A stretch of 64,000 nt of DNA from Planctomycetota bacterium (GTDB lineage: Bacteria; Planctomycetota; GCA-002687715; DRQF01), in assembly GCA_027001995.1 (NCBI GenBank), contig JALTLO010000022.1, positions 816-64,815 of the forward strand, given 5' to 3'. Of this stretch, positions 2,640-62,112 are shown piece after piece. Numbering within the stretch: the first letter of the stretch is position 1; each line of letters starts with the position of its first letter. The position numbers and the translations under genes are program-made. A model generated the notes under the pieces. The model had not been told where the DNA came from. It was given only the letters and a program-made list of their open reading frames with translations, and ran no database searches.

Positions 2640-2814
2640 GTTGATCGCTCCCACGGTTCTTCTTGCATAATTATCGACCGCTGGGAGCCGAGACTTGAAC
2701 ACCCAAATGGGTATTCAAGAGTATTGAGTCTATTTGAAGCAGACCTTAGCCCAACTCATTCACAATCGCCTTGCTGGGACAGCGTGGGTGAACTGCTCGG
2801 CTTAAACCATCAAG

Positions 2815-4823: not shown

Positions 4824-4867
4824 CCTTCAAACGAACCTTGCGTCACAGTTATCATGAACAAAAACGG

Positions 4868-6639: not shown

Positions 6640-6658
6640 AGTTATTTCTTTCGTGGGT

Positions 6659-7990: not shown

Positions 7991-8092
7991 GCGGTTCCAC
8001 GATTTGAGTTATCGGCGGCTTCAGCATGAATATTCAGTAGAATCGAGAAAGAAGATGAGGCGGCTGGAGAAAAGGCGTTTTGTGGTGCCAAA

Positions 8093-8721: not shown

Positions 8722-8913
8722 TAGATTTCTCGTTGCTTTCCTCTTTGAGAATCGGGCTTTCAACCAAATAGCATGAATGAAAACCCAAGTTAGGAGCGAA
8801 TTTAGCCGACTAATTATGCATGGGGGCGACATGGAACACCCCGTTTGGGCTCATTCCTGGGCCACTGATATGTGCTATCCTACTGAGGATAAACAGCTTG
8901 TGAAGGAGCCCCT

Positions 8914-12473: not shown

Positions 12474-12500
12474 ACAGCATCGTTAATCGGAGCCGAGCCC

Positions 12501-13469
12501 TTGACCATCGAAATCGTCAAACAAACGGACCACGACGGGACTAGTCTCGCCCGGGTCATAGCGCGACTTCGGCGCTTGCCCCATGATGAGATAGTAGGAT
12601 TAGATCAACATCTTCGCCGCCTTGCTCTGGAGCGGGATCTAAAGAAAAACTTGAACGACCCATCGGTCCACATATGGGTCGGCCGTGAAAAAGGCGAAGA
12701 CACGGGCATCGCAGTGCTCAAACATCTCACTTGGGATAGTGAGATCTTGGGGGTGAGCTGCGCTTCCATTGCAATTTATCTTACCGATTGCGATCAATCT
12801 TCCCGCCAAGCTACAGCCTCTCTCCTCATTCACCAGGCCCTACTCCGCTGTCGTACAGAGGACATTCACTTCGTTTCAACAAAAGTCTTCAGCGACCAAT
12901 TCGCTCAAATACACGCCCTTGAAGATCTCAATTTCCGTCTCATGGATGCAGAAATGATCTTGCGCTACCACGGCGAACGAGACGAGATTCAAGACGTCCC
13001 GGAAATCAACTTCGTCAAAAAACAGAAGGAAGAAGTCCCCGGGTTGTCCACCATGGGCAAGCTCTTTCACATGAGCCGCTTCTTCGCCGACCCTAAGTTA
13101 GGCCCCGAACGGGCAGACCGACTCTGGCAAGAAAGCGTTACTGATAGCTGTCGTGGCCATGCAGATAGTTTCCTCGTGGCTATGGAAGACAACAAGGCAC
13201 AAGGTTTCGTCACCTTCATGGACAACCCCGATTTCTTCGGTTTGGGGGGTCCATCCATACGCAACTTTTTCCATGTGGGTATCGCCCAAGAAGCCCAAGG
13301 CAAAGGCCTGGGCACTGCCCTCATTCATGCTGCCCTCCGTGACAGCAGCGCCTTTGACCACATCATGGTCGAAACCCAATCCCGTAACACAGGCGCCTTA
13401 GCTCTCTACCAAAAATGCGGTTTCCGCATCCTCGGCTCCCGCTTCGCCTTCCATTTGTGGATGGCTTAG
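12501..13469 (+). CDS. GNAT-family N-acetyltransferase (two GNAT-like halves; PseH-like candidate)
   Basis: The C-terminus HVGIAQEAQGKGLGTALIHAAL...ALYQKCGF is an acetyl-CoA-binding motif. The start is a TTG, and the exact start is uncertain. Confidence 0.7.
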   Translation: MTIEIVKQTDHDGTSLARVIARLRRLPHDEIVGLDQHLRRLALERDLKKNLNDPSVHIWVGREKGEDTGIAVLKHLTWDSEILGVSCASIAIYLTDCDQSSRQATASLLIHQALLRCRTEDIHFVSTKVFSDQFAQIHALEDLNFRLMDAEMILRYHGERDEIQDVPEINFVKKQKEEVPGLSTMGKLFHMSRFFADPKLGPERADRLWQESVTDSCRGHADSFLVAMEDNKAQGFVTFMDNPDFFGLGGPSIRNFFHVGIAQEAQGKGLGTALIHAALRDSSAFDHIMVETQSRNTGALALYQKCGFRILGSRFAFHLWMA

Positions 13470-14796: not shown

Positions 14797-14965
14797 GTGC
14801 GAAAAATGACTCACTCAATTCATCTTGATCCCCACCCAATCAGAGAGAAGGATCTACCTGTTGATGATGTCTCGCAATCTACGGAATTATCTTTAGCTTA
14901 AGATCCTTTCGTCGCGGGTTTCAGCACCTTCGCTGTTCAACGGAATTGGAAAACTTGGAGAATAC

Positions 14966-16571
14966 GATGATGATGAGCCGTACCTTCGCATGCTTCTTAG
15001 CACTTGCCTTGGTTCTCGGATTTTCAGGCTCTGCACTGAGCCAGGACAGAGATGACTTGGCGCGAGAAGTGCGCCGCCTCAACAAGAAACTCAATGCAAT
15101 CAGCACCGTTCAAGAACGGCTTGTTGGTGAGAACGAGCATTTACGCAAGGACAATGCTGAACTGCGTAGTTTGATCAACAACGAACGAGTTCCAGTGAGC
15201 GAACTGGAAACCTCGTTAAATGCTCTGGGCGACACAATCGAAAACGCTGGAACGGTAGTAGAATCAACTGCCAACCCCATCACCCTTTCTGGGCAATTCC
15301 GGTTTCGTGCCGGTTTCATTTCGAACCGTGATTTCGGCGCAAGCCCGAATTCGAATGGTGGCGACTTGGGAGATGACAGCGGTACTTTCGTTGATGCTCG
15401 GATCAACGTGGCCTTCGACTTCGCCCTGGCCCGCAATGTAACAACTCACTTCGAATTGATTTCCTCTGGACTTTTCGAGAACGGAAACACAAACCAAAAC
15501 ACGGGAACGTTGGCTGAAGTCGATCTTTATCAAGGTTACGTCCATTTCGACAAGCTTTTCGGAACCGACGAGATTGGACTCAGAGCAGGGCGACAAGAGA
15601 TTGCACTTGGCAACGAGTTGTTCTTTGGCAACAATAGTTTCTTCGGTGGTGAGACATTTGACGCAACCCTTGTCTGGTGGGCGCAGAAAGAATGGAGCCT
15701 CATTTTCGTATGGGCAAAATTCGACATCGCTCAAGCCAGCAATCCAAGTGGCCAACCTTACCCCACCTACTTAGCTGGCCATGGGTTCGATGACGACGAG
15801 GCTTACGCCCTCTACTTCACCCTCAACACCATCGAGAATCACGTTCTTGACCTCTACTACTTCTTCCTCAACATAAACAACGTTGCGGGAGCATCTACGG
15901 GAACTTTGGGCAACGGATTCCCACCAGACACATTTGCTCACGTCCTTGGCATTCGCTTGGCCGGAGACCACGCCAGCATCGCTGAAGGGTTGGACTACAA
16001 CATTGAATTCGCCTACGAGACTGGGGACATCAATAGTGCCGCCATTGACTTGGAAGGGTTTATCGTCGAAGCAGAGTTAGGCGTTACCTTCAACGCCGAC
16101 ACTAAATTCCGGGTGTTTGGACGCTTCGTTTATGCGAACGGCGCCAGCGGCAACAATTCTGGATTTGTTCCTTTGTTTCCTGATCGTCAGGAGCAAGTCA
16201 ATTGGGACGACCACACTGCCAGTCGGGCTCGTTGGGGTTTGATGAACATCATTCCTTTGACCAACGTAATCTCCGGACAAATCGGATTCACCTTCCGTCC
16301 CGCAGAGGATTGGATCTTCGGTATGACCGTTCTCGGAGCTTGGCGTGACGAAGATGTCATCACGACGGATGGTAATTCCAAAGGTGGTATTGGTTGGGAA
16401 ATCGATGCTTTCGCGGACTACCGTTATAGCACCGACACCACGATCAGCTTGGGTCTCGGGGTCTTCCTTCCTACAGAAGGCGCGCCGCTTGAGAATTCCC
16501 CCATTAGCGCTGGCAATAACGAAGACGAAGCCGCATTCCTCTTCTATCTCCAGTCACTGACAACCTTCTAG
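14966..16571 (+). CDS. Outer-membrane beta-barrel protein (porin-like) with N-terminal periplasmic coiled coil
   Basis: It has a signal peptide (MMMSRTFACFLALALVLGFSGSALSQ) and a heptad coiled coil (LNKKLNAIS...LRKDNAELRSL). The rest alternates hydrophobic, Gly/Asn/Asp-rich beta strands, and it ends in a terminal Phe (LQSLTTF). GGAG lies 8 nt upstream of the ATG. Confidence 0.6.
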
Positions 16572-16596
16572 CCTCAATCCATTTCGATCGACTGAA

Positions 16597-16628
16597 AGAG
16601 CACGGCGATAGCCGTGCTCTTTTTTTTG
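16597..16628 (+). terminator. Rho-independent terminator
   Basis: The hairpin AGAGCACGGC-gata-GCCGTGCTCT is followed by T8. Confidence 0.75.
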
Positions 16629-16966
16629 CTAGATGTCGCCCCACAACAAACGACACTCCTCGAATAAAAACCCACGACCACTGGGTATCCAAAAGATTAT
16701 TGGTGAGATTCCTCAATTCTCCTCAACAGCCATGCAAAGGGCTTCCGACAAGGGCTACAAGGAAAAAATGCCGTCAGGACAAATCGTTTCCTCGTGAAAC
16801 AGGACTTCCGGATAGGCACCAACGGGCCCAGATGCGATCGCGGCAGAACCGAACGCTGCGGAGAAATGGATAGAACCCAAGAAAAACTGCTTTAAGTGCA
16901 GGGGGCATCCTCCCGTGAGGATCAGTTCATAGGGCTCGATTTAATTGGAATAGTTTGGAGAGAAGG

Positions 16967-18562
16967 ATGCTTTATCGCACCGTAATTTGCACATTCACTT
17001 TGGCCCTCACTTTGGGCAGCGCGTGCTTGGGACAGACACAAGATCGAAATGACTTTGAAGCTAAGCTAAGACACTTAAACGCAAAGCTCGAGAACATTGG
17101 CGCCACCCAGGAGCGTCTGATCATCGAGAACGCAAAACTGCGCCGTGACAATGACGAACTCCGTGACCTTGTTGATAACCGACAAACGGCACACTCGGAG
17201 CTCGAGGTTTCCTTGAATGCATTGGCAGATGCAGCTCTCGATTCTGAAGGCGCAGCAGTGGTCTCCAATGCTAACCCCATTACCGTAAGTGGCGCTTTCC
17301 GATTCCGTCTTGGGTTCACAGCCAACCGTGATTTCGGAAGCAGCAATCAGGGCAACGACTCCAGCGACGACAACGGCACTTACATTGACGGACGCATCAA
17401 TGTTGCTTTCGACTTTGCTTTGGCGAGGAACGTCACCGGACGATTCGAGATGATTTCCGCTGGCCTATTCGAGAATAGTGCAGCCAATCACAACACTGGA
17501 ACGCTTGATGAAGTTGATCTCTACCAAGGCTACATTGCTATCGACGGGATCTTTGGACGCGATGAGTTAGGACTCAAAATCGGTCGACAGGAGATTGTCT
17601 TAGGCAGTGAACTGTGGTTTGGGAACAACAGTTTCTACGGCGGCGAAACATTCGATGCGGTTCTCGCATGGTGGAATCAAGACGAGTTCTTCCTCGGTTT
17701 GGTATGGGCCAAGATGGATATTCGAAGCACTTACAATGCGGCTGGACACCCCTACGTTCCTTTTCAAGTTGGCAATGGCTACGATGACAATGACGCCTTC
17801 GCCGCTTACTTCACCTTAAAGACAATCGAGAACCATGTTCTGGATCTCTACTATTTCTTCTGGAACGACAACGGTCCCGGAGGAACATTCGGAACCTTGG
17901 GCAATCTCTTCCCTGCTGACACATTCGCCCATGTTTTTGGCATTCGCTTAGCTGGTGACTTGCCAAACGTGGCGGCAGGTTTGGACTACAGCTTGGAATT
18001 CGCTTATGAAACCGGTGACATCGACAGCTTAGGCATCGACATGGAAGGTTTCATCTTTGAAGCCGGTGTTGGAATAACTTTCAACGCTAACAATCTCCTT
18101 CGTGTGGCAGCCGGTTTCATCTTTGCAGAAGGACCAGATTCTGGTGACTCTGGCTTCGTCCCTCTATTCGTCGACCGTCACGAGCAGGTCAACTGGGATG
18201 ACCACACAGCTAGGCGCGCTCGCTGGGGTTTGATGGACATCATTCCCCTCACCAACGTGATAGCTGGTCAAATCGGCCTGACATTCCGACCTGCTGAAGA
18301 TTGGATCTTCGGTGCCACCTTCTTGGGGGCTTGGCGGGATCAATCGGTCTTGACCACAGACGGCGATACCGAAGATGGTATTGGCTGGGAGATCGATGTA
18401 TTCGCCGACTATCGCTACAGCGCCGAAACAACAATCAGTGTTGGAGTTGGGGTTTTCATCCCGAATGAAGGGGCGCCGCTTCAAAACTCAGCTCTGAGTG
18501 CCGGTAACAATGAGGATGACGCAACCTTCCTGATGTACCTGCAAGCATTGACCACCTTCTGA
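16967..18562 (+). CDS. Outer-membrane beta-barrel protein, tandem paralog of 14966-16571
   Basis: It is about 60% identical to the upstream gene and has the same architecture: signal peptide, coiled coil, beta-barrel region and C-terminal LQALTTF. GGAGAGAAGG lies upstream of the ATG. Confidence 0.6.
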   Translation: MLYRTVICTFTLALTLGSACLGQTQDRNDFEAKLRHLNAKLENIGATQERLIIENAKLRRDNDELRDLVDNRQTAHSELEVSLNALADAALDSEGAAVVSNANPITVSGAFRFRLGFTANRDFGSSNQGNDSSDDNGTYIDGRINVAFDFALARNVTGRFEMISAGLFENSAANHNTGTLDEVDLYQGYIAIDGIFGRDELGLKIGRQEIVLGSELWFGNNSFYGGETFDAVLAWWNQDEFFLGLVWAKMDIRSTYNAAGHPYVPFQVGNGYDDNDAFAAYFTLKTIENHVLDLYYFFWNDNGPGGTFGTLGNLFPADTFAHVFGIRLAGDLPNVAAGLDYSLEFAYETGDIDSLGIDMEGFIFEAGVGITFNANNLLRVAAGFIFAEGPDSGDSGFVPLFVDRHEQVNWDDHTARRARWGLMDIIPLTNVIAGQIGLTFRPAEDWIFGATFLGAWRDQSVLTTDGDTEDGIGWEIDVFADYRYSAETTISVGVGVFIPNEGAPLQNSALSAGNNEDDATFLMYLQALTTF

Positions 18563-18666: not shown

Positions 18667-20994
18667 TCAAGAAGCAGGAGAGACTTTAGGCGAGGAAGGA
18701 GCGACGGCCGAGCCCCCTTCTGTCTTCCCGGTGGTGACAAAGGACCTTCCTGTCTTCAGCCCAATAACGAACCAAGCAAAACCTGCCACCCCAGACATGA
18801 AGATCACATCACCAATGATGCGCAACCAACGCAGGGTCTCCATGAATGGTTGTTGCATGAATTCTGCTGACCTGGCGTACCACATACCCTGCTCAACGCT
18901 TGCCCAAGTTTGAAACAAGCCAATTGGCAGAAGACTAAGCAAAACCATAAGCCCCAAACCAATGTTCATGCTCCAGAATGCGTAGCGCAAAGTACCTTGA
19001 CGCCAAACATGCTGAATTGTCAGCCTGCGCAAAATGACCAGAATCAAGCCCAGTGACAGCAGGCCATAAACACCGAACAAGGCGGTGTGAGCATGGACGG
19101 GTGTCGTATTCAGGCCTTGCATGTAGTAGAGGGAGATAGGGGGATTGATCATGAAGCCGAAAATACCGGCTCCAACAAAGTTCCAGAATGCAACCCCAAC
19201 GAAGAAGGTGATAGGCCAACGATAGCGCGTGGCCCAGTTCGCCAACTTCTGACTGCGGAAAGTCTCCCATGCTTCGAAGCCAACCAAAACCAATGGCACG
19301 ACTTCCAGAGCAGAGAAGCTGGCCCCAATAGCCATGGCAGAGATAGGTGTGCCGCAGAAGTAGAGATGATGCGCCGTCCCCGGGATTCCACTGACAAGGA
19401 ATATAGAAGTCGAGAACAAAGACGCCCGCGTCGCGCTGGACATACGAATCAAGCCAAGCTTTGCAAAAATGAAGGCAATGGCGGCGGTGGCGAAGACTTC
19501 GAAGAATCCTTCAACCCAGAGATGAACCACCCACCAACGCCAGTACTCTGCGATAGTCAAATGGGTCCTCGCGCCGATGAGGAGTGCCGCCGTATAGAAT
19601 AGACCGATTGCAACTGTCGAACCGGTGAACAGCAAGACCAAAGACCTGGAACGATCCTTCTTCACCAAAGCAGGCCACATGCCACGCAGCATCAAGAAGA
19701 GCCAAAGAACAACGCCAATGACAAAGAGAATCTGCCAGAAACGGCCTAAGTCAAGATACTCATAACCTTGATGCCCGAACCAAAAGCTCGACTCCAAGGA
19801 GAGCTTTTGATGGATCGCCAAGTACTCACCGGTCAACGAACCAACAACGACAACGAGAAGAGCGCCAAAGAGGACATTGACCCCCAGCTTCTGATGCTTC
19901 GGCTCACGCCCACCAATGATAGGAACCAAGAATAGACCAGCCCCAAGGAAAGCAGTGGCGATCCAGAAGAGTGCTGTTTGAAGATGCCAGGTTCGTGTCA
20001 GGCTGTAGGGCAAGTAGTCGGCTAGAGGGAAACCAAAGAATGCCTTACCCTCAACGGTATAGTGAGCTGTGATTGCCCCCAAAATGACTTGGACACAGAA
20101 AAGGGCAACGACGATATAAGCGTACTTTGCTACTGCTTTCATCGAAGGTGTGACTTCAATTTTGTCCAGAGGATCACGGTCCGGAACAACAAGTTCACCC
20201 TCTTCCCGATCGGTGAAGGCTTTGTACCACACAAGAGCACCGATACCGGCAATAAGCAGAACGATACTGATGATGGACCATAGAATGTTGGCCGAACTTG
20301 GTTCATTGCCAACAAGGGGCTCGTTAGGCCAGTTATTCGTGTACGAAACAGACGAGCCATCCCGCTCTGTGCTAGCAGCCCAAGAGGTCCAGAAGAAGAA
20401 CTTAGTCATGGCCTGCCGCCGTTCCAAGTCCGGCAAGGTATTGTCATTGAGGGCGTAGTCATCCCTCAACTGAGTCAACTCAGACTTGTCACCAAACAAA
20501 CCGACGTAATGATCAGCAACCCGCTTCATCGCTTCAGCGCGATTCGAAGAAATGATCAGAACGTCTTTTGCCTTATCGTAGCGGTTAGTCCGCATTTCTT
20601 TCTTGAGAGCAGCAGAAACAAGAGTTTTGTCGTCTTCTCCCAAAGACTCAAAAGACAAAGCCCCTCGTTCTTGAGACAGGATTTCCCTCAACTCGATAGC
20701 TTCCCGGTGCAACCAATCCGCAGACCAGTCTGGTGCTTGATAGGCGCCATGCCCCCAGACAGAACCATTTTGTTGACCACCGATACTCTGCCAGACAACT
20801 TGCCCTTGCAAGATGTCATCCTTCGTCATGATAGCCTGACCATCTTCCGTTTGAATCGTCCCAGGAATCGGCGGTGCTTGTCGATAAATCTCCCGGCCCG
20901 TCCAACCTAAGATCGTAAATGTGATGACCAGGACGATCCCCAGTCCAATCCAAAGTTTGCGGTAGGAGATGACGCTACCCGTCGGGTTGCTCAT
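18667..20994 (-). CDS. norZ: Quinol-dependent nitric oxide reductase (qNOR, NorB/NorZ large subunit, heme-copper oxidase superfamily)
   Basis: The motif WWVVHLWVEGFFEVF contains HLWVEG, the NorB helix-VI His plus catalytic Glu. His-rich transmembrane helices are present (GTAHHLYF, HAHTALFGVYG). The protein is about 775 aa with an N-terminal extension, as in qNOR. The listed ATG at 21057 sits inside the sigma-54 promoter. The ATG at 20994 has AAGGAAG 5 nt upstream, so I use 20994. Confidence 0.85.
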   Translation of the reverse strand: MSNPTGSVISYRKLWIGLGIVLVITFTILGWTGREIYRQAPPIPGTIQTEDGQAIMTKDDILQGQVVWQSIGGQQNGSVWGHGAYQAPDWSADWLHREAIELREILSQERGALSFESLGEDDKTLVSAALKKEMRTNRYDKAKDVLIISSNRAEAMKRVADHYVGLFGDKSELTQLRDDYALNDNTLPDLERRQAMTKFFFWTSWAASTERDGSSVSYTNNWPNEPLVGNEPSSANILWSIISIVLLIAGIGALVWYKAFTDREEGELVVPDRDPLDKIEVTPSMKAVAKYAYIVVALFCVQVILGAITAHYTVEGKAFFGFPLADYLPYSLTRTWHLQTALFWIATAFLGAGLFLVPIIGGREPKHQKLGVNVLFGALLVVVVGSLTGEYLAIHQKLSLESSFWFGHQGYEYLDLGRFWQILFVIGVVLWLFLMLRGMWPALVKKDRSRSLVLLFTGSTVAIGLFYTAALLIGARTHLTIAEYWRWWVVHLWVEGFFEVFATAAIAFIFAKLGLIRMSSATRASLFSTSIFLVSGIPGTAHHLYFCGTPISAMAIGASFSALEVVPLVLVGFEAWETFRSQKLANWATRYRWPITFFVGVAFWNFVGAGIFGFMINPPISLYYMQGLNTTPVHAHTALFGVYGLLSLGLILVILRRLTIQHVWRQGTLRYAFWSMNIGLGLMVLLSLLPIGLFQTWASVEQGMWYARSAEFMQQPFMETLRWLRIIGDVIFMSGVAGFAWFVIGLKTGRSFVTTGKTEGGSAVAPSSPKVSPAS

Positions 20995-21045
20995 TATTGT
21001 CTTCCTTGTGTAGATGGACCCAAAAGCAGGTCGCACCTGCCACAA

Positions 21046-21061
21046 GGCAATTCCCATGCCA
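21046..21061 (-). promoter_or_regulatory. Sigma-54 -24/-12 promoter of the qNOR gene
   Basis: The minus strand reads TGGCAT-gggaa-TTGCC, a near-perfect TGGCAC-N5-TTGCA. It lies about 50 nt upstream of the ATG at 20994. Confidence 0.65.
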
Positions 21062-21098
21062 TCAAGGAACTGTTGTGAAATAAGGACTTATGCCTATT

Positions 21099-21161
21099 GT
21101 TGTTATTTTAACAACCAACTATTGGTTGTTCTTTTTACAACTTCGTTGTATAAACAACAAC
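21099..21161. promoter_or_regulatory. Three NorR-type enhancer boxes (GT-N7-AC family; here GTTGT-N7-ACAAC)
   Basis: Box 1 is GTTGTTATTTTAACAAC (21099-21115). Box 2 is GTTGTTCTTTTTACAAC (21125-21141). Box 3 is GTTGTATAAACAACAAC (21145-21161). A palindrome AACCAACTATTGGTT lies between boxes 1 and 2. The boxes sit 40-115 bp upstream of the sigma-54 promoter and abut the norR start. Confidence 0.6.
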
Positions 21162-21162
21162 C

Positions 21163-22701
21163 ATGGAACAACTCGACTCACTCCACGCCATCGCCGTCGA
21201 TCTCAATCAGTCCCTCTTGGCCAATGATCGCTATCAGAGATTGCTCACAGCAATCGATAAAGTGGCCCCCAGCGATGCCTCCTGCCTATTGCGCTTGGAA
21301 GGAGAAGAAATGGTCCCTCTTGCAGCCCGAGGTTTGGTTCCAGAGGCCTTGGGAATCCGCTATCGCCTGAGCGATCACCCCCGGTTGGCAATCATTGCTG
21401 CGGCGGAAAAGCCAGTGCGCTTTGCCAAAGACTCCTCCCTGTCTGATCCATTCGACGGTTTGGTGGAAGGCAATGCCCTTGAGGTCAATCACATCCACGC
21501 CTGCTTGGGGTGCCCTCTGCGGGTAGATGGCAAGCTCATCGGGATTCTCACCCTCGACGCTCTGAACCCAGAAGCCTTCCTCACCTTGGAAGACCTTTTT
21601 CTTCAAACGTTGGCAGCTCTTGCTGGGGCCGCTATGAGGACAGCAGCCCTCATCGACTCTCTATCTGAACAAGCCCGAAGAGAAGGGATGGTGGCAACAG
21701 AACTCATGAAGAGTTCTTTTCGAGGCGCCAATCAAGAAATGCTCGGAACATCTGCCGCGATGGAGAGATTGCGCTCGGAAATCAAATTGGTGGCGAGCAC
21801 CGACTATGCCGTTCTGATCACCGGAGAAACGGGTTCAGGGAAGGAATTGGTAGCCGCGGCGATTCACGAGTTCTCCCAAAGACCTCGGGCCCCTTTCATC
21901 CGGGTGAACTGCGCTGCCTTGCCAGAATCTCTGGCTGAGAGCGAGCTTTTCGGCCACAAACGGGGGGCGTTTTCCGGAGCCGATAACGACCGTGAAGGGA
22001 AATTCGTGGTCGCCGACGGGGGCACCCTCTTCCTCGACGAAATCGGCGAGTTGCCGTTGCCTCTCCAGGCAAAGCTACTTCGAGCCCTCCAAGATGGTGA
22101 GATTCAACGGGTGGGTGAAGACCGACAACGCAAAGTAGACGTGCGCCTGGTCACCGCCACCAACCGCAATCTAGAGTCTGAGGTGGCCGCTGGCCGCTTC
22201 CGGGAAGATCTCTATCACCGATTGGCGGTTTATCCCATTGTCGTCCCTGCACTTCGGGAACGGGCCTCTGACATCCCCCTCCTCATCGGCCATTTCTGCG
22301 AACGCATCCGCCGAAGGCACGGACTTCAAGAGGTCAGAATCGCCCCGGAGCTACGAGATCGACTCCAGCGAGCCAATTGGCCCGGCAACGTCCGCGAGTT
22401 GGAAAATACCATTGGTAGGCTCGTTCTACGGGCCTCGGGAACTTTGGCAGCCGGCACGAAGGTCTTTGTCCACGACTCCAGTACTTTGGCCTTAGAAAGC
22501 CAAATCCGACCTGGTTCACACCAGGATGCCAACCCGGAGGTGAGAACTGGCCTGAGGGAATCTGTTCGCGACTTCGAACGCCGTCTCATTATGAGAACGG
22601 TGGAGTCCAACGAAGGGAATTGGGCAGCCGCTGCCCGAAGTCTCAAGATCGACCGCAGCAATCTCTACAACTTGGCTAAGCGCTTAGGGTTGCGAGCATA
22701 G
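21163..22701 (+). CDS. norR: Sigma-54-dependent transcriptional activator NorR (GAF - AAA+ - HTH)
   Basis: It has an N-terminal GAF domain, the Walker A [15 protein letters not shown], the GAFTGA-type loop [16 protein letters not shown] and a C-terminal HTH. It is transcribed divergently from the qNOR gene. Confidence 0.85.
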   Translation: [512 protein letters not shown]

Positions 22702-46436: not shown

Positions 46437-46644
46437 CCTGAGTTAGCGAATCCATGGGCTTTCAAGGCAACATGGGAGGATTCCCCTCAAACCAATATCC
46501 AGTCCTTTCAAAACTCGACTTCTCTGGTAGGATTCAAAGCACAGGTTGAGAGGCCGCGCCGCATCACATCTCACCCTATTTCTCAGTGGTCGACGTCTCA
46601 GAAGCAACGCTCCCAAAGACAAACGGCAAAATAACTGACTAGTG

Positions 46645-49600
46645 ATGTTGAAACAGAAAACGATCTATTGCTGTTTAGGAGTTCTCCTCCTTTGCTCAAG
46701 TGGCCTCAGTCAAAGGTTTCACACCAGGACATACGATCTTTCAGCCGGAATGCCCGCAGTCAATTGCCTCTCCACAACCCAGGATGGTGATGGACGCCTG
46801 TGGTTTGCATCCCGTTCAGGAATGATGAGCTATGACGGTGAACAGTGGAAAGTCTGCGAAGGATTCGGTGACCCGGAAAACTTGAAGCCACCTATTCACT
46901 GTAGCGCTGACTCCATGGGTCGTATTTGGGCCACGACAATTTTTGAAGTGAGCTACTTGAAAGATGGCAAGTGGCATGAATTCCCTGGGCCACCAGGCAG
47001 ACGCAAGATCAGAAACACTCAGATAGAGACGATTTGGCACAAGGGAAACCCCGTGGTCTTGATTCGCTACACCGATGGCAACTTCATGATTTATCGGGAA
47101 GGGAAATGGCAACGAGTTCATTGGACCTCTTTGGAGCACCCACCCACTGAGACGGGGCCCATCGTCAAATCGACCGATGCGTTTCTCCTAACAACCAAAG
47201 ATGGGATTTTTCGTGTCGATCCTGCTACTGGAGACGCATCCCCTTTTGATCTGCCAGATTCCACCAAGAACATTCGAGGCGCCACCTTCGATGAAATTCG
47301 TGGCGAGCTCTGGTTAGTCGGAGAGGATTGGATTGCGAAGCTCAAACGTATCGAAGGAAAGTTAGACCCATCGTCATTTTCCTTCGTCAAAAGTCAAATC
47401 CAATTGCGGCCATTCTTCAGCCGAAGTCCCGATTTGCAAGTCGTCGCAGATGGGCGAGGCGGTTTGTGGTTTGGCAACGTATTCTCCATTTTTCATTTAT
47501 CAATCGATGGAGATCTGAAGCGGGTGCGGCCGCAAAATGGGTTAGTAGCAGAAGGAGTCAATTCTTTCTTCCGAGACCGAGAGCAGAACATCTGGATCGC
47601 CTCTGGCCGAGGTCTCACCAAGATCATCAGCCAGCGGTTCACCAGCTATGACCATGACCACGGCCTCTTGGACGACGAAGTTTCGGCCATCTCTCAGTTG
47701 CCTGACGGCCGCATTGTCCTTGGACATCAGGGGGGCATCACCCTTCTTGGCCCTCAGGGAACGCAAACCATCCATTTCGATGGCAACGATTCTACCTCTC
47801 GCACAATGGATTTGAAGGTCGATCCCACTGGATCCGTTTGGGCCTGCTGCCATTTCGCTGGACTAGCCCGCATCTCTGAGCCCTCCCAATTGGACTTCAT
47901 TCATGCACTGCCAAACATCCGCATCAATTCTGTTGCCTTTGATCCCCAAGGAGAAATCTGGATTGGCGCTGATGATGGTCTCTACAAAGTTGTCGGCAAC
48001 AAACTGGAAGCCATCCAACTACCAGTTCCCTCCCATGCCTCGGCCGAGCGCTATGGTGTCAGGCGCTTAGTGACCGGCAAAAGCGGAACCATCTATGCGG
48101 CAGTACCCCGATCCGGGATTCTGGGAATCACCAAAGGGGAGTTTCGAACTTGGCAGACAGCACCGGAATTACTGGACGTCTACTCAGCAATCGAAACGGA
48201 AAAAGGTCAAGTCTGGTGCGGCTCGTCCTCAGGCCTTGGACACCTGATAAACAACCGCTTCGAATTATCTCACAATCCAAGAATCAAAGGCCCAGTCTAT
48301 GCTCTTCTTGAAGACAGGCAGGAGAATCTGTGGATTGGGACGGACCGGGGTGTCTACGTCTGGAATGGAAAACAACTCAGGCGATTTCACAGTGGTAATG
48401 GCTTGCTCGGCGCAGAAACGAATCGGGCCGCCCTTTTCGAATCCCGAGAGGGTGACATTTGGATCGGAACGGCCCGAGGGGTTTCTCGATACCGATCCGA
48501 GCTCGACACGCGCGTTCCCGTCAAACCACAGGTCCTGTTGGGAAATATTTCATCCACCGACAGTGAGTTTTCCTTTGCCAGCGCCCGATCTCTACCTCCG
48601 GAATCGAATGATGTCAGCTTCGCATTCTCAGCGAGCTCTTTCATTGACGAGTCCCAGGTCAAATTTAGAATCAAACTCGAGAACTACGATGACGCTTGGT
48701 CAACCCCAAAGGTCCTCCCATCGCGAAAAATTCGCTACACAAATTTACCTGCCGGAGAATACCGCATTCACGTCCAGGCGATTGACGCAGAAGGAAACGC
48801 CAGTGACATCGTCGTCTCTCCCACACTGACAATCGAAAGCCACTTCTATCAAGAAACCTGGTTTCTCCAGCTCTGTGTTTTGGCGGTCTTAGGCTTAGGG
48901 TGGGCAGGATTCGCCTTCTGGAACCAGAGGATCTATTCGAATGAGCTCGAGATCCAAGTCCAGAAACGAACAGAAGAACTGCGCAAAGCGGAGAAGACCC
49001 ACGCTCAGGTGGCGAGGTTAGAATCCTTAGGAGTCTTAGCCGGAGGGATTGCCCACGACTTTAATAACCTCCTAACCGCAGTGACTGGCTATACGTCTCT
49101 CATCAGTAAGGACAAATTCCTGAGTTCGAATTCAAAACAATTCGTGAAGGAAGTAGAAAACGCCTGTGGGCGAGCTCAAGGCCTGACGAAACAACTCCTC
49201 ACATTTTCTCGAGGTGGTGCCCCAGTCCGCAAGATGACATCGATCACCGACATCATAGAAGAGGCCGCCACTTTTTCACTTCGGGGTTCAAACGTCGAGT
49301 GTGAATTCGATTTTGAAGAAGGTATTCCAGAGGCCCATGTTGACGCCGACCAATTCCACCAGATAATCAACAACCTGACCATCAATGCTCGCCAGGCCAT
49401 GCCTCAAGGTGGGTCAATAAGGTTCCGTGTTCGATCAATCGTCGATGAGAACGACGAACGACATCTTGAAATCCTGGTTACCGACCAAGGCGTAGGAATC
49501 CCTGCGGATGTCGTACCACGGATCTTCGACCCCTACTTCTCCACCAAGTCCGAAGGCAGCGGTCTTGGACTGGCAATCGTACACTCCATTGTTCACAAGC

Positions 49601-50124
49601 ATGGAGGCAGAATCACAGTCGATTCCACATCGGAACAAGGAACAGTCTTCAAGATCACAATCCCAAGTTCAGCGAGCGAGCCCACTTTAGAACCAACTCA
49701 ACAGTCTCATGGGGTTCTCCGTCCCCAGAAAGTACTCGTTTTGGATGATGAAGAATCCATCTGCCGCTTTGTCCAGTATGCCTTGGAATCTCGGGGCTGC
49801 GAAGTCGTCACTGTGAGCGACGGGGAAGATGCCATTCGGGTCTACCGCAGCGCCCTGAACGCCAACAAACGGTTTCGCACGGTGATTGCTGACCTAACCA
49901 TTCCTGGGGGTATGGGCGGGGCGCAAGCTGGACGGGAGATCATGAAAATCGATCCCGCAGCCCAAATCATCGTCACAAGCGGGTACGCCAATGAACCCAC
50001 CCTTTCGAACTATGCAGTTCAAGGATTCGCCGGAAAGCTCCCCAAACCGTTTTCCTTGACCCAGCTCATTTCTACTTTGAGTTCCGTGCCGGCAAACTCC
50101 ACAGAATGCAACAATGAGGCTTGA
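46645..50124 (+). CDS. Hybrid sensor histidine kinase with periplasmic beta-propeller (two-component regulator propeller) and Y_Y_Y domain
   Basis: After a signal peptide come repeated WxG-type propeller blades, then Y_Y_Y (YRIHVQAIDAEGNAS) and a TM segment. The kinase core follows: HisKA (IAHDFNNLLTAV), the HATPase_c motifs (VTDQGVGIP and GSGLGLAIVHSIV), then a receiver domain (VLVLDDEES...DLTIPGGMGG). Confidence 0.85.
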   Translation: MLKQKTIYCCLGVLLLCSSGLSQRFHTRTYDLSAGMPAVNCLSTTQDGDGRLWFASRSGMMSYDGEQWKVCEGFGDPENLKPPIHCSADSMGRIWATTIFEVSYLKDGKWHEFPGPPGRRKIRNTQIETIWHKGNPVVLIRYTDGNFMIYREGKWQRVHWTSLEHPPTETGPIVKSTDAFLLTTKDGIFRVDPATGDASPFDLPDSTKNIRGATFDEIRGELWLVGEDWIAKLKRIEGKLDPSSFSFVKSQIQLRPFFSRSPDLQVVADGRGGLWFGNVFSIFHLSIDGDLKRVRPQNGLVAEGVNSFFRDREQNIWIASGRGLTKIISQRFTSYDHDHGLLDDEVSAISQLPDGRIVLGHQGGITLLGPQGTQTIHFDGNDSTSRTMDLKVDPTGSVWACCHFAGLARISEPSQLDFIHALPNIRINSVAFDPQGEIWIGADDGLYKVVGNKLEAIQLPVPSHASAERYGVRRLVTGKSGTIYAAVPRSGILGITKGEFRTWQTAPELLDVYSAIETEKGQVWCGSSSGLGHLINNRFELSHNPRIKGPVYALLEDRQENLWIGTDRGVYVWNGKQLRRFHSGNGLLGAETNRAALFESREGDIWIGTARGVSRYRSELDTRVPVKPQVLLGNISSTDSEFSFASARSLPPESNDVSFAFSASSFIDESQVKFRIKLENYDDAWSTPKVLPSRKIRYTNLPAGEYRIHVQAIDAEGNASDIVVSPTLTIESHFYQETWFLQLCVLAVLGLGWAGFAFWNQRIYSNELEIQVQKRTEELRKAEKTHAQVARLESLGVLAGGIAHDFNNLLTAVTGYTSLISKDKFLSSNSKQFVKEVENACGRAQGLTKQLLTFSRGGAPVRKMTSITDIIEEAATFSLRGSNVECEFDFEEGIPEAHVDADQFHQIINNLTINARQAMPQGGSIRFRVRSIVDENDERHLEILVTDQGVGIPADVVPRIFDPYFSTKSEGSGLGLAIVHSIVHKHGGRITVDSTSEQGTVFKITIPSSASEPTLEPTQQSHGVLRPQKVLVLDDEESICRFVQYALESRGCEVVTVSDGEDAIRVYRSALNANKRFRTVIADLTIPGGMGGAQAGREIMKIDPAAQIIVTSGYANEPTLSNYAVQGFAGKLPKPFSLTQLISTLSSVPANSTECNNEA

Positions 50125-50135
50125 GAAGGTCCGAT

Positions 50136-50699
50136 TCAGCGATCTTCCAAGATCACACCAAGTCCGTCAGCAATGCGATTGACGTAGGCGTAGTAGCCTA
50201 CGATCTCAGCGATATTCAAGATATCAAGATCAGAGAATCCCAGTTTGCGAAGGGGTTGAACGTCAGACTCTTTCATCTGGCCCGGAGACAAAGTGAGCTT
50301 TTCTGCATAAGCGAGCATGCCCTTTTGCTTGGCAGAGATCGCGGCGCTTTGCCAGTCACTTTCAATTGCAACGACCAGAGAGTCTTCTCTCAGAAACCGA
50401 CGCAGACCGCGCCGATGATGACTGACTCAGTAGTGACATTCATTGAGCTGACTCACGACCAAGGCAATCATTTCACGGTCACCTCCACGAAGGCTGGGGG
50501 TCCCTTTCATCACCGCTTGGTAAAGAGAGAAATGAGCTGAAAGACCAGCTGGATGGAGGGAGTGGACTTCCATGATGGCATCCAATTCACCCGTCTCTGG
50601 GTCTGCAACCGATTGGTAGAGATGGACCAACTCATCGTTTGCTTCAGAAACGTCAATCGTCTCGATCCAAGCTCTTTTCTTGTTTTCTTCCATGGACAA
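50136..50699 (-). CDS. AhpD-like / carboxymuconolactone-decarboxylase-family peroxidase-related protein with in-frame TGA (candidate selenocysteine) at the resolving-Cys position
   Basis: The two listed ORFs (50427-50699 and 50136-50318) are in the same frame and are separated by a single TGA at 50427-50429. The read-through is LNECHY-[TGA]-VSHHRRGL, which matches the NxCxYCxxHH motif of the family. A hairpin AUCGGCGC-GGUCU-GCGUCGGU begins 8 nt after the UGA. Confidence 0.55.
50396..50416 (-). ncRNA. SECIS-like mRNA hairpin downstream of the in-frame UGA
   Basis: It has an 8-bp stem with a GGUCU apical loop whose G and U fall about 20 nt from the UGA. The loop sequence resembles the apical loop of the E. 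coli fdhF SECIS. Confidence 0.4.
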
Positions 50700-50704
50700 G
50701 TCCG

Positions 50705-53551
50705 CTACTTTTTCCCCAGTTGCCGAAATACACGAATCGGACCAACAGGCTTTCCCGATTTGTCAAAAAGGCAAACATTCAAAGGGCGGCCCTTTTTCAA
50801 CTTGATGGAGCCACGCAACTCTTTTGACGCCTTGCTTGGAATTTTAGAGCCCGTCTCATAACGCATCTTGAGTCCTTGGACCGGGCAGTTCAAAGTGATC
50901 GCTGAACGATCCCGTTTACTGATGATCTGAGGCCAAAGGATATCCAATTCGCCGTAACGAATTTTCCCTGTTCTGGAGGCGATCACTTCAATTCTCAGAT
51001 AACGTCCCAATTGCGGAAGGTCGAAAATCGCTTTGCCTGCTTTCTTACCTTCAAGAACGTAAACTTTAGCCTTCTTGGCCAGGCCCGAGGCCTGATTGGA
51101 CACAGCAACCTTCACTTCTTTGGGCAAATAGCGTCCACTGAATCGAATGCCAGAAATCAATTCGCGAGAACCAAGGTCAATGGTCACAGTGAATGGAAAA
51201 CGATGAGCGCCTTCACCCATGTCTGGTTGCCATGGAGTTTCAGGATCACCGTCAATTAGAGCCCAAGCCCGACGTATGGCTTCATTCTTGTCCTTGGCTC
51301 CATTCGCTGACATGACTTTCCACCGGTGCTTGGAGAGGCCCAACTCGACACGGGTGATGGCAGCTATTTTCTTTTCTCCTCGATCAAAACCCGCAGAGAC
51401 CAGGCCCCCCAACGGCAAAGAAAAAGGACCTTGATAAATCTGCGACTTGACCGTGGGCCTTCTGCCATCTGTGGTGTAGCGTATTCGGTCGGCGAATGGC
51501 GAACCCTCTATGACCACCAAACCCTGAGCATTTCGCCTAATACGGATTTTCTTAGTGATCGAAGTTTTCTGCTTGAGTTTCAGCCAACCTTTATCTTGAT
51601 CTGGAGCACCGGTGATAAAGAGTCCTTTCTGCCGAACACTGAGCAACATCGCCATGGACGGGTTCACCAGTCCTTCCCCTCCCATGTAAGGAGATCCCAT
51701 ATGAGCCATCGTGTGCCGGAGACCAAATTTGGGTTCCCAAGCTCCACCAAATGACCAGCGCCACGCCTGCATGACTTTTCTAAATGCTTGGGGGTCCGTG
51801 GAGAATAATCCAACCAGCCCCCAAACATCTCCTGGATTGCCATAGGCATGGCTATTCCGCATGTAGGAATGACGCTCGAGCATGATCTTGGCCAATGCCT
51901 TGCGCATATATCGTTTTTCGCCACGCAACTTCGCCGCCAAGGCGAACAAACCACTGCGAGACCAGAATTCTCCCAAGTCACGGTAAGAAGCATTGTAGCC
52001 CATGGCCCCGTGCCCCTTGTCCTTGGGGTCAGACCAAGAGTGCATCATGTAAGGAAGAAGAGTTTCCCAAATGGTCGATTTGATCCCCGCTTTGCGGGCC
52101 AGGGCTTCGAAGACAATCACGTGAGAGGCGGGAGCCATGAGGGCCTTTTGACCGTAAGGCAGTCCACTGGGTCCGTGGCCAAGGGCAGGCATTCCCCATT
52201 TTGAAGTATGAAAGCCCTTCTCAATCCACTTGAGGGCAGACTCGATCCAGGGGCGAATGCGCTCATCGCCCGTAGCCAAAAGATACTCAGACATGAAAAT
52301 CCCAGCATAGGCCGCCGTCCAGAATCCCAGATTGCCGAATGACTCAGGGGTGGCGTATTTCTCCAAGTACCAGTCCGCCACTTGGCGAATCGCTTCATAG
52401 TCCTGTGGATCTCGGCGGCCTAAGAGAGCCAAGCCTGCGAAACAAGTTTGAATCCACTCATTTCCTCCATTGGCCCAATAGCCCTGCTTCTTTCTGGTGC
52501 GCCGCACAAAGTCCATAAGATCGGCATAAAGCTCGGGTGTCACTTGATCGTCGAAAGGGAAGTCCTCAGGCAAGGGCGAACGTTTCACCAATTTCAATGT
52601 CAGTTCTTTGGTTTGCAGTTTGCGTAGAACCGTCAACCTAACCCGAGGGCGTCCACTCTCTAAAGCTGCTTCCGACGCTCTCCCCAGTGCCTGCTCATGA
52701 CCATTCTCAAACCAGTCGAATCCTGGTTTGCAGGAATTGATTGGCAATGGAGCACCGTTGATTTCCAAGATGATATCCCCTGGCAAGAGCCCTGCGACGG
52801 CTGCGGGTGAACCCTTCCTCACAGAGACCACAGGTAAGGGAGCATGCTCGTGAGCTGTTTGAGAAACAAAACCTAAAGTTCCAGAATCAAGCCGATCTGG
52901 CCCATTCTTGCCATTAGGTTTAGCGAAATTCATAACGGCGGGATCTTGGGGCAAACGCAAGACAAGGACATCATCAACCAAAATTGGGATTTTGCCTTTC
53001 GATTGAATCGAAAGACGCCATTTGCTGTTGCTCAATTTAGCAACAGGTAGGGCAATAAGAGCTCGCTGCCGAAATCCTATTTGATTGACTTTGATTTTTT
53101 TCTCAAAAGCGCGACTGGTCCCGGGCACCTCCAAGCGCAGAACCAAGACGCCGTGGCTCTTTCCAGCCTTGCGAAGGGGACTGAGGGCTCCATCAACGCT
53201 GATAGAATAGACCCATTGCTCTGGATTAAAACCATCCTTGTCAGATTTCTTCGCCGGTGGAGTGGCAAAATGAACGTCGCGGCTTAGCTTCGCAGAAGGC
53301 CCCAACAAAATGGCGAAATCATTCTTCGTTTGCGTTCCGTCACGTTTGGCCCAGCGCGCATTCCCCTCGACCCGCCATTCTTTCGATTTGAAGGCCTTGC
53401 CATCTTGAGCACGTTTCTTGTTAAAACGAGAGCCTGACAGTTTGATCTGGTCAGCCCCCACGTCCTCCGGGCTTGGCGAAAGGCATAAGAAAGCCAAAAC
53501 AGACAAACACATGAACCAAAAAAGAACGCCTGAGAATACCGAACTCTTCAT
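50705..53551 (-). CDS. Large secreted multidomain protein (PDZ domain; alpha-helical glycosidase-like core; C-terminal F5/8 type C / discoidin domain)
   Basis: It has a signal peptide and a PDZ domain (AAVAGLLPGDIILEINGAPL). The discoidin-like segment is WALIDGDPETPWQPDMGEGAHRFPFTVTIDLG. It is 948 aa. Confidence 0.5.
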   Translation of the reverse strand: MKSSVFSGVLFWFMCLSVLAFLCLSPSPEDVGADQIKLSGSRFNKKRAQDGKAFKSKEWRVEGNARWAKRDGTQTKNDFAILLGPSAKLSRDVHFATPPAKKSDKDGFNPEQWVYSISVDGALSPLRKAGKSHGVLVLRLEVPGTSRAFEKKIKVNQIGFRQRALIALPVAKLSNSKWRLSIQSKGKIPILVDDVLVLRLPQDPAVMNFAKPNGKNGPDRLDSGTLGFVSQTAHEHAPLPVVSVRKGSPAAVAGLLPGDIILEINGAPLPINSCKPGFDWFENGHEQALGRASEAALESGRPRVRLTVLRKLQTKELTLKLVKRSPLPEDFPFDDQVTPELYADLMDFVRRTRKKQGYWANGGNEWIQTCFAGLALLGRRDPQDYEAIRQVADWYLEKYATPESFGNLGFWTAAYAGIFMSEYLLATGDERIRPWIESALKWIEKGFHTSKWGMPALGHGPSGLPYGQKALMAPASHVIVFEALARKAGIKSTIWETLLPYMMHSWSDPKDKGHGAMGYNASYRDLGEFWSRSGLFALAAKLRGEKRYMRKALAKIMLERHSYMRNSHAYGNPGDVWGLVGLFSTDPQAFRKVMQAWRWSFGGAWEPKFGLRHTMAHMGSPYMGGEGLVNPSMAMLLSVRQKGLFITGAPDQDKGWLKLKQKTSITKKIRIRRNAQGLVVIEGSPFADRIRYTTDGRRPTVKSQIYQGPFSLPLGGLVSAGFDRGEKKIAAITRVELGLSKHRWKVMSANGAKDKNEAIRRAWALIDGDPETPWQPDMGEGAHRFPFTVTIDLGSRELISGIRFSGRYLPKEVKVAVSNQASGLAKKAKVYVLEGKKAGKAIFDLPQLGRYLRIEVIASRTGKIRYGELDILWPQIISKRDRSAITLNCPVQGLKMRYETGSKIPSKASKELRGSIKLKKGRPLNVCLFDKSGKPVGPIRVFRQLGKK

Positions 53552-53554
53552 AAA

Positions 53555-54040
53555 TCAATCCTCCTGCGCCAGTCGTTCCAGATCAGCCCCTTCGAGCCGA
53601 AACACGGACCAACCGTCCATTTGCTTGGCTCCTAGTGACTGATAAAATTGAATCGAGGGTTCATTCCAATCAAGACAAGCCCATTCGAAACGGGCGCAGT
53701 TTCTTTCCTTGGCAACCCCAGCCAAGGCCCTCATCAAAGACAATCCCAGGCCCTGGCCTCGATACTCGAGCTTGACAAAGAGATCTTCCAAATAAAGACC
53801 AGGGCGGCCACGCCAAGTCGAATAGGTATGAAAAAAGAGTGCCATCCCCACCACAGCACCCTTGACCTCAACCAAAATGCACTCGATCTTCACCGCCGAA
53901 TTTCCTGCCAAATCACTGGCAACAGACTCAACCGTAGCCTCTACGGCATCCGGCTCTTTTTCGTAGTCCGCCAAATCTTGGATCAGTCCAAGTATGGCCT
54001 CAGCGTCATTCTCAGTTGCCATCCTCAAAGTATGAGTCAT
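53555..54040 (-). CDS. GNAT-family N-acetyltransferase (diamine/spermidine acetyltransferase-like)
   Basis: It has the acetyl-CoA motif YRGQGLGLSLMRAL, followed by NCARFEWACLDWNEPSIQFY. Confidence 0.85.
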   Translation of the reverse strand: MTHTLRMATENDAEAILGLIQDLADYEKEPDAVEATVESVASDLAGNSAVKIECILVEVKGAVVGMALFFHTYSTWRGRPGLYLEDLFVKLEYRGQGLGLSLMRALAGVAKERNCARFEWACLDWNEPSIQFYQSLGAKQMDGWSVFRLEGADLERLAQED

Positions 54041-61467: not shown

Positions 61468-62112
61468 ATGACACAAACTCTCTACTATTTGGGTGATCCC
61501 ATGTGTTCATGGTGCTTTGCCTTTCGCAAAACGATCCTTCACATCGAAGAGGAATTTACCAAAGAAGTTAATTTGCACTACGTCATGGGAGGATTAGCGA
61601 AGGACTGTGAGTTACCCATGCCAAGAGAAACCCAACACTATGTCCAAGAAAACTGGCGACAAATTGAAGCCCAAACGGACACCCGCTTCAATTGGGACTT
61701 CTGGCGAAATTGCCAACCAAGACGTTCGACCTACTTGGCTTGCCGTGCAGTTCTTGCTGCAGGGATTCAGAACCTCAATCTCAAGTCGAAAGTCTTCGCT
61801 TCCATTCAGAGGGCTTACTATAAAGAAGCTTCAAATCCATCTAACCTCGACACTTTGATGGCAATCGCACACAAATTTGCAGCAGAATTGGACGTCCAAC
61901 GATTCGAGAAAGATCTTCTGTCTGGCCCGGCTGATCTCCTGTTACAAAATGACTTCAGCCTCCGAAGAAAGATAGGCGGCCACAGTTTCCCCAGCCTGAT
62001 TTTGAAGACCAAAAGGGAGTCTGTCATCGTCTATGAAGGTTGGGGCAAAACCAAAGAAGTCATCACCAAACTCAAGATAGCCTTGGCTCAGTCTGAATCC
62101 AAAAACTCATGA
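61468..62112 (+). CDS. DsbA-like thioredoxin-fold protein (FrnE/2-hydroxychromene-2-carboxylate isomerase-like)
   Basis: LYYLGDPMCSWCFAF contains the CxxC active site. Confidence 0.8.
   Translation: MTQTLYYLGDPMCSWCFAFRKTILHIEEEFTKEVNLHYVMGGLAKDCELPMPRETQHYVQENWRQIEAQTDTRFNWDFWRNCQPRRSTYLACRAVLAAGIQNLNLKSKVFASIQRAYYKEASNPSNLDTLMAIAHKFAAELDVQRFEKDLLSGPADLLLQNDFSLRRKIGGHSFPSLILKTKRESVIVYEGWGKTKEVITKLKIALAQSESKNS

Follow-up and report, generated by a model that had tools for sequence, protein, structure and literature searches.

A probable selenocysteine codon and a downstream SECIS-like hairpin in an AhpD-like gene of a Planctomycetota bacterium

A 64-kb stretch of DNA from a Planctomycetota bacterium (contig JALTLO010000022.1), here called the window and the source of all coordinates given without a locus name, carries on its minus strand an AhpD-like gene that is divided by a single in-frame UGA, with an RNA hairpin on the coding bases just beyond it. 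Here, combining profile, structural and comparative searches, we describe the family and active site of the protein obtained by reading through this codon, the retention of the UGA among relatives from several phyla, and the signature of selection that both the hairpin and the downstream protein sequence bear. On these grounds the gene product is in all likelihood a 185-residue AhpD-like thiol/selenol oxidoreductase of the TIGR01926/COG2128 'peroxidase-related' family, in which the UGA is read as selenocysteine (Sec). We also set out how the predicted selenoprotein may be made and may act, the readings that compete with this one, and the genes that surround it.

The locus and its reading frame

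Translation of the minus strand from 50699 to 50133 yields one frame with a single internal stop, which lies between ALVVSQLNECHY and VSHHRRGLRRFL (with longer flanks, between REMIALVVSQLNECHY and VSHHRRGLRRFLRED) and around which the protein reads NECHY-U-VSHH. An initial annotation of the window had reported one TGA at 50427–50429 separating two open reading frames (ORFs) of the same frame, and the translation confirms this. The gene ends in a terminal TGA at 50138..50136 (minus strand). Its start codon is likely the ATG at 50693, because homologs begin M-x-WI- and because the 88-amino-acid fragment on record uses the same start; that fragment is one of two, of 88 and 60 amino acids, as which the gene appears in the recorded gene calls of the source metagenome-assembled genome (MAG; GCA_015485455.1). 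The features discussed below are collected in Table 1.

Table 1 Features of the AhpD-like locus in the window
Feature	Coordinates	Strand	Description	Basis
AhpD-like (TIGR01926, peroxidase-related) coding sequence	50136..50693	-	185 codons including predicted Sec89	Translation, NCBIfam, Pfam, PDB relatives
In-frame UGA	50429..50427	-	Predicted selenocysteine codon (residue 89), motif C86-H-Y-U89	Translation
Active-site segment	50415..50474	-	Glu74 (50474..50472), Cys86 (50438..50436), predicted Sec89, His93 (50417..50415)	Residue spacing
Predicted SECIS hairpin	50396..50416	-	Overlaps codons H92-H93-R-R-G-L-R-R-F	Centroid fold, comparative tests
948-amino-acid DUF6288/PDZ/discoidin protein	50705..53551	-	Upstream, co-directional	Pfam
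GNAT acetyltransferase	53555..54040	-	Upstream, co-directional	Pfam

Protein family and active site

With cysteine put in for the stop, the protein scores 132.9 bits against the NCBIfam model TIGR01926 'peroxidase-related enzyme' (cutoff 81.8), protein residues 9–181 aligning with profile positions 2–174 of 178; the read-through protein is also matched by the Pfam family CMD (PF02627). The nearest solved structures are an AhpD-like protein of Deinococcus radiodurans (6k40, E = 1e-24) and the 'uncharacterized peroxidase-related proteins' 2oyo, 2pfx, 3c1l and 2prr. These five matches span about 155 residues with E values from 1e-24 to 1e-17, those to 6k40, 2oyo, 3c1l and 2pfx lying between 1e-24 and 1e-22. 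The N-x-C-x-Y-C-x-x-x-H motif of the solved homologs aligns with N-E-C-H-Y-U-V-S-H-H in the window protein, placing the UGA on the second cysteine (6k40, 2oyo, 3c1l); the earlier assignment of the TGA to the second Cys of a CxxC motif is thereby borne out. The solved homologs, 6k40 among them, have Cys where the protein described here is predicted to have Sec, and the Cys-type homologs at loci L084 and L085 have TGC at the codon aligned with the UGA. All 81 sequences of the comparison described in the next section have the same residues at five positions, counted from U: E at −15, C at −3, Y at −1 and H at +3 and +4.

The spacing of this segment is that of AhpD from Mycobacterium tuberculosis, in which Glu118, Cys130, Cys133 and His137 are the proton relay residues (PMC3141380). 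These correspond to Glu74, Cys86, predicted Sec89 and His93, the order in both proteins being Glu, 12 residues, Cys-x-x-Cys (or Sec), x-x-x, His. The two proteins also have the CMD-fold superfamily (Pfam PF02627) in common. As to which residue acts first, PMC6626918, citing Bryk 2002 and Koshkin 2004, describes the second cysteine of M. tuberculosis AhpD, Cys133, as attacking Cys61 of AhpC. The homolog of this AhpC-attacking residue is the one replaced by Sec here and, by analogy with it, Sec89 would most likely attack and Cys86 resolve. The initial annotation had taken the UGA to replace the resolving cysteine; the roles given in PMC6626918 indicate the reverse.

Two more specific assignments were considered and rejected. 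Canonical AhpD, of the M. tuberculosis type with AhpC as its partner, has in common with the window protein only the active-site spacing and the CMD superfamily: no M. tuberculosis AhpD structure was returned by the PDB search with the protein at E ≤ 0.01, the canonical ahpD model is not among the NCBIfam hits of the read-through protein, and no ahpC or peroxiredoxin gene lies in the neighbourhood of the AhpD-like gene. NF041238 (AhpD_rel_CFYUT; 'hypothetical protein 1' of the Sargasso Sea, an alkylhydroperoxidase-related (seleno)protein) has a related CMD-type domain and a similar C-x-Y-U-T motif; the window protein scores 41.5 bits against its cutoff of 175, and the model describes a longer, 357-position architecture.

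Conservation of the UGA and of the sequence beyond it

A protein search returned 109 relatives, from which 24 proteins were retrieved, and a scan with one genome per species (GTDB) returned 582, of which the best 80 loci were examined; together with the window these make up the 81 sequences used throughout. The codon at the Sec position is TGA in all of the best 80 loci of the 582. These loci, with 46–65% identity, belong to Planctomycetota, Acidimicrobiia/Actinomycetota, Chloroflexota, Acidobacteriota, Krumholzibacteriota, Calditrichaceae and Marinimicrobia and are drawn from about five phyla. The same TGA is also present in the syntenic Planctomycetota ortholog (L086) and in L083.

The coding frame is kept with equal care on the two sides of this codon. 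All 81 genes are free of further internal stops, and in every one the frame runs 95–149 codons beyond the TGA. Amino-acid identity to the window protein is 55–64% before the TGA and 56–67% after it, and nonsynonymous divergence (pN) is about 0.23–0.33 on both sides; synonymous sites are near saturation and the comparison is therefore limited to pN and identity rather than the ratio of nonsynonymous to synonymous rates (dN/dS). Both the conserved YYAYVNRIADGLGV segment and the catalytic His93 lie downstream of the TGA.

Public protein records reflect the interruption. Among those listed, the close database proteins are mostly about 101–110 amino acids long and match only the C-terminal half of the query, and most of the 24 retrieved proteins start no more than a few residues beyond the Sec position (MTHHRRGLRRLL), from which it follows that the TGA has led gene callers to cut the gene in two. 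Of the 24, full length is reached only by three Cys forms and by one JGI protein that has 'W' at this position. For this last entry (protein P0001, L083:445-993, JGI 3300057042) the DNA has TGA and the gene call gives W, making a full-length but wrong protein; its W is apparently an artefact of calling the gene with a code in which TGA specifies Trp.

The hairpin downstream of the UGA

In the window, the mRNA after the UGA reads GUCAGUCAUC-AUCGGCGC-GGUCU-GCGUCGGU, that is, a 10-nt spacer followed by an 8-bp stem (5′ arm AUCGGCGC, 50416..50409; 3′ arm GCGUCGGU, 50403..50396) closed by a 5-nt loop (50408..50404) that begins 18 nt after the UGA. Two of the eight pairs are G-U. Folding gives this hairpin as the centroid structure, at −11 kcal/mol, and there is no terminator-like site overlapping it. 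The hairpin reported in the initial annotation is thus real, its spacer being 10 nt rather than the 8 nt given there. The likeness of the loop to the apical loop of Escherichia coli fdhF, also pointed out there, holds up: the consensus of the fdhF selenocysteine insertion sequence (SECIS; Rfam RF01988, SECIS_2) is UGA, 18 nt and GGUCU, and both loop and distance are identical here. The fdhF element differs in having a bulged U, whereas the stem here is uninterrupted.

On the window sequence by itself the hairpin is a modest signal. Comparable hairpins, defined as having at least 8 bp, a G in the first two loop positions and a loop starting 14–22 nt after the triplet (a range that includes the hairpin's own position), follow 0.7–0.9% of all positions or TGA triplets in the window. 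What takes the hairpin far beyond chance is the comparative evidence, namely the pairing counts, the wobble pairs and the loop codon.

Selection on the hairpin across relatives

In the ungapped alignment of the 81 sequences (A2), where the stem occupies columns 20–27 and 33–40, 69.9% of stem cells are paired compared with 61.1% in shuffles, with 0 of 500 shuffles reaching the observed value; sliding the partner by 1–3 columns lowers pairing to 32–48%. The hairpin is thereby conserved in relatives above both shuffled and slid controls, a check that the initial annotation had called for. Three of the stem pairs each join two codon third positions. At one of these, the third bases of Arg codons 1 and 3 (counting CGN/CGN combinations only) are paired in 39 of 43 sequences against 25.9 expected by shuffling, as G-C (22), C-G (7), A-U (5) or G-U (5), with 4 mismatches. 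In the Planctomycetota ortholog L086, two synonymous substitutions (CGC to CGU, CUG to CUA) have turned the closing pair from C-G into U-A. The loop is constrained too: of 70 Gly codons at this place, 60 are GGT and none is GGC, whereas Gly codons elsewhere in the same genes are GGT in 155 of 993 (16%) and GGC in 456 of 993 (binomial p = 3e-38).

RNAalifold found no consensus structure over all 81 sequences, apparently because the stem registers of subgroups differ by 1–2 nt or by about 10 nt; the count of the named structure and the wobble-pair test were used in place of a consensus fold. Distant subgroups with the peptides HHGAGLLRL, HHGEGLRRL and HHGRGLRRL for the most part keep a hairpin in roughly the usual position, with GG(G/U) in its loop. 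A subgroup from Chloroflexota/Anaerolineae with the peptide HHARNLRQL (L053, L055, L058, L061, L068, L077 and L080) has no hairpin at the usual place and instead has one about 10 nt further 3′, some 25–45 nt after the TGA, with a GUUG loop (for example, UUCGUCA-GUUG-ACGAAG), which means that the position of the predicted SECIS varies within one family.

The bases of the hairpin also encode protein. Where the solved homologs read HGAALREF, the Sec forms read HHRRGLRR, the stretch that doubles as the predicted SECIS. Because the Cys forms lack RRGLRR, the Arg-Arg-Gly-Leu-Arg-Arg peptide that follows Sec appears to be imposed by the SECIS palindrome; if true, this would show cleanly, and across phyla, an RNA structure determining the sequence of a protein. 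In a small control of two Cys homologs, one is without a hairpin and the other has an unrelated hairpin further 3′. This second one, in the Cys-type gene L085:513-1079 (TGC at the site), is strong (GUUCGGCAAUUGUCGAAC) and lies about 22–40 nt after the Cys codon; it could be a chance structure or a relic SECIS (n = 1).

Selenocysteine machinery next to the gene in two relatives

Genes for Sec decoding lie beside the AhpD-like gene in two of the relatives. An Actinomycetota MAG (L016:1508-4770) has selA (TIGR00474, 496 bits) and selB (TIGR00475, 323 bits) directly upstream on the same strand, and an Acidobacteriota MAG (L059:2446-4362) has selB (396 bits) directly upstream of the AhpD-like Sec gene, again on the same strand. 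Sec machinery is therefore physically linked to the AhpD-like selenoprotein gene in two phyla, and at least some carriers of the gene are demonstrably Sec decoders.

Interpretation of the UGA as a selenocysteine codon

Directly supported are the in-frame UGA and its conservation, membership of the family, selection on the hairpin as RNA and selection on the protein sequence past the UGA. The AhpD-like selenoprotein proposed in the initial annotation gains support from the family score, the conserved TGA, hairpin covariation, the constraint on the loop codon, the equal conservation on both sides and the adjacency of selA and selB in two relatives, and UGA codon 89 very probably encodes Sec, as judged from sequence comparison.

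Several results weigh against this interpretation. Searches of the 64-kb window with ARAGORN, Rfam and, on 49 plausible ORFs, Pfam revealed no selA, selB, selD or tRNA-Sec; the window has no tRNA and no Rfam hit at gathering thresholds. A scan of the window for a second TGA-split or selenoprotein gene found none, and the DsbA-like gene at 61468–62112 has a normal CSWC motif. The 63-nt segment that contains the hairpin folds no better than shuffled sequence (z = −0.14), and a lower stem reaching down to include the UGA, in the manner of fdhF, was rejected as a conserved feature, being 46% paired across the relatives and no better than controls. The wobble-pair test gives p of about 1e-5, and the covariation p-values, this one included, ignore phylogenetic relatedness. 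Membership of Rfam SECIS_2 was also rejected, the score being 15.1 bits against a gathering threshold of 70 (E = 1.8); the resemblance to the fdhF element is therefore functional or convergent rather than one of membership.

Drawing on established bacterial Sec decoding and on AhpD chemistry, we infer SelB binding, Sec insertion and the nature of the substrate as follows. With the UGA in the ribosomal A site, the hairpin 10 nt downstream would bind SelB-GTP-Sec-tRNA(Sec), which would outcompete release factor 2; Sec would be inserted and translation would proceed through the 96 C-terminal residues. In the folded enzyme, Sec89 may be held deprotonated by the conserved Glu74/His93 relay and may attack a peroxide or else a partner in oxidised form, a peroxiredoxin for example, after which Cys86 would resolve the adduct to give an intramolecular selenenyl-sulfide.

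Three other readings of the UGA were weighed. The first is that the codon is read through without Sec, either by a near-cognate tRNA (Trp or Cys) or because UGA has been reassigned (for example, to code 4 or 25), and that the hairpin merely slows the ribosome. The W at the homologous TGA in the JGI gene call P0001 would fit such a reading. However, that W is a product of gene calling over a TGA, as set out above, and TGA is the terminal stop of about 20 of the window's other genes (roughly 50), and the window therefore uses the standard genetic code, with no global reassignment. Moreover, the GGUCU loop is kept against codon preference and is identical, at an identical distance, to the loop that SelB binds in fdhF, which speaks for a sequence-specific binder and not for a simple roadblock; selA and selB adjoin the gene in two relatives; and the position is that of a redox Cys in the Cys-type homologs. 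We therefore regard read-through without Sec as very unlikely.

The second alternative, that the gene is a pseudogene or truncation in which the TGA is a genuine stop, nothing but an 88-residue N-terminal fragment is produced and the frame beyond is decaying, agrees with the two-fragment gene calls of the source MAG and with the lack of Sec machinery among the features found in the window. Set against it are the same TGA in 80 of 80 relatives of several phyla and in the syntenic ortholog, the freedom of these genes from other stops or frameshifts, the conservation of the downstream half to the same degree as the upstream half, and the position of the catalytic His93 and the conserved YYAYVNRIADGLGV segment after the TGA. 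From the conserved TGA, the absence of other stops and the equal two-sided conservation, a pseudogene or truncation is excluded for practical purposes. The third reading, that the locus is a split gene whose 88-amino-acid N-terminal polypeptide and separately initiated C-terminal polypeptide together form the enzyme, is scarcely credible either: some relatives do have ATG, GTG or another possible start right behind the TGA, and gene callers begin C-terminal proteins there, but this codon is a non-start codon in most of the 81 genes (ATC, GTC, ACG, ATT, CTC, ATA, CTA and others) and GTC in the window, where the first start codon comes 37 codons downstream (M127), the intervening 37 codons, including the invariant HH, are conserved as protein, and there is no ribosome-binding spacer.

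Genomic context

Upstream of the AhpD-like gene and co-directional with it are the GNAT and 948-amino-acid protein genes of Table 1, with 3 nt between GNAT and the 948-amino-acid gene and 11 nt between the end of the latter (50705) and the ATG. On the other side, a convergent hybrid kinase ORF has its end at 50124, which leaves 11 nt to the stop of the AhpD-like gene. Planctomycetota MAGs hold the nearest homologs of the 948-amino-acid protein, at 50–61% identity. In one Planctomycetota MAG, L086:4649-12950, the layout of window positions 46642–54040 recurs, with GNAT, a DUF6288 protein (944–948 amino acids in the two genomes), the split AhpD-like gene and a convergent Y_Y_Y hybrid kinase; synteny continues with Vut_1 and PhoX, protein identity over the whole arrangement is about 60%, and an extra short-chain dehydrogenase is inserted in L086. 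This arrangement occurs only in the related MAG L086 and not in the other 80 loci, and clustering of the ORFs flanking the 81 loci revealed no partner gene in common, the largest clusters being antisense ORFs or the gene's own halves. The operon of the initial annotation, with the AhpD-like gene last and the kinase converging on it, therefore stands as a layout, the link to GNAT and DUF6288 recurring in a single Planctomycetota MAG; these genes are possible operon partners of the AhpD-like gene.

One of the antisense ORFs, at 50121–50540 on the plus strand (139 amino acids), lies over the AhpD-like gene and has a counterpart in 41 of the 81 loci. Its appearance as a 'family' in the clustering is due only to its mirroring of the conserved sense gene, which makes it a trap for ORF-based annotation.

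In both the window and L086 the Sec gene is kept last in a cluster that encodes the secreted DUF6288-PDZ-discoidin protein together with GNAT, and for this reason the AhpD-like Sec protein could be a dedicated selenium-dependent redox partner of that envelope protein rather than a free-standing antioxidant. That this partnership and the imposition of RRGLRR by the SECIS should both hold true seems unlikely.

Other parts of the window encode functions apart from the AhpD-like gene. At 18667–22701, a quinol-type nitric-oxide reductase (NorB with a fused cytochrome c-like domain, 796 amino acids) is divergent from a GAF/sigma-54-activator/HTH_8 regulator; such a divergent pair of NorB and regulator is the classic NorR-norB arrangement. 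A large sugar-modification cluster at 681–13469, apparently for a nonulosonic (sialic-like) acid, comprises NeuB, a CMP-type cytidylyltransferase, an epimerase, a DegT aminotransferase, a carbamoyltransferase, WbqC, PIG-L, a radical SAM enzyme, GNAT and glycosyltransferases. As listed, its NeuB ORF (5632–6930) overlaps the radical-SAM ORF (6659–7990) by about 270 nt, and the real NeuB start is therefore probably further downstream. Two tandem paralogous 'alginate export'-type outer-membrane porin genes, encoding 541 and 535 amino acids, occupy 14946–18562.

Discussion

Selenoproteins of this kind have been recognized for two decades. The Sargasso Sea study of 2005 reported, among its new selenoprotein families, an 'AhpD-like protein (COG2128), CXXU', for which it had 27 sequences and a predicted SECIS (PMC1088965); the AhpD-like selenoprotein family is present in sequenced bacteria (PMC1794560); and AhpD-like 1 (COG2128) was the fourth most abundant selenoprotein family in the Global Ocean Sampling (GOS) ocean data, with 299 sequences (PMC2398784). 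More recently, a 2026 review of the prokaryotic selenoproteome has the entry 'AhpD-like protein, TIGR01926, CxxU' (PMC13188914), and AhpD-like selenoproteins are a browsable family in BSepDB (PMC13326102). The initial annotation had described the family as known but rare; it is known, and the 299 GOS sequences (PMC2398784) speak against its being rare. The gene described here agrees with the COG2128/TIGR01926 CxxU family in its domain model, in its predicted Sec at the second motif position and in a bacterial SECIS-like element just downstream. No difference in kind came to light; the GNAT and DUF6288 neighbours are lineage-specific, and the gene is a typical, previously unannotated member of the known AhpD-like CxxU selenoprotein family.

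The general picture of selenoproteins is unchanged by this gene, and its significance is mainly a matter of annotation. Public gene calls mostly break the gene at the UGA into a pair of meaningless fragments, or write W, and dozens of database 'proteins' of about 100 amino acids are selenoprotein halves. The family alignment, for its part, offers a compact and well-controlled example of dual coding, in which the RRGLRR peptide and the SECIS hairpin lie on the same bases. For the organism, correct annotation adds a selenoprotein to a probable Planctomycetota genome and predicts a Sec-decoding trait.

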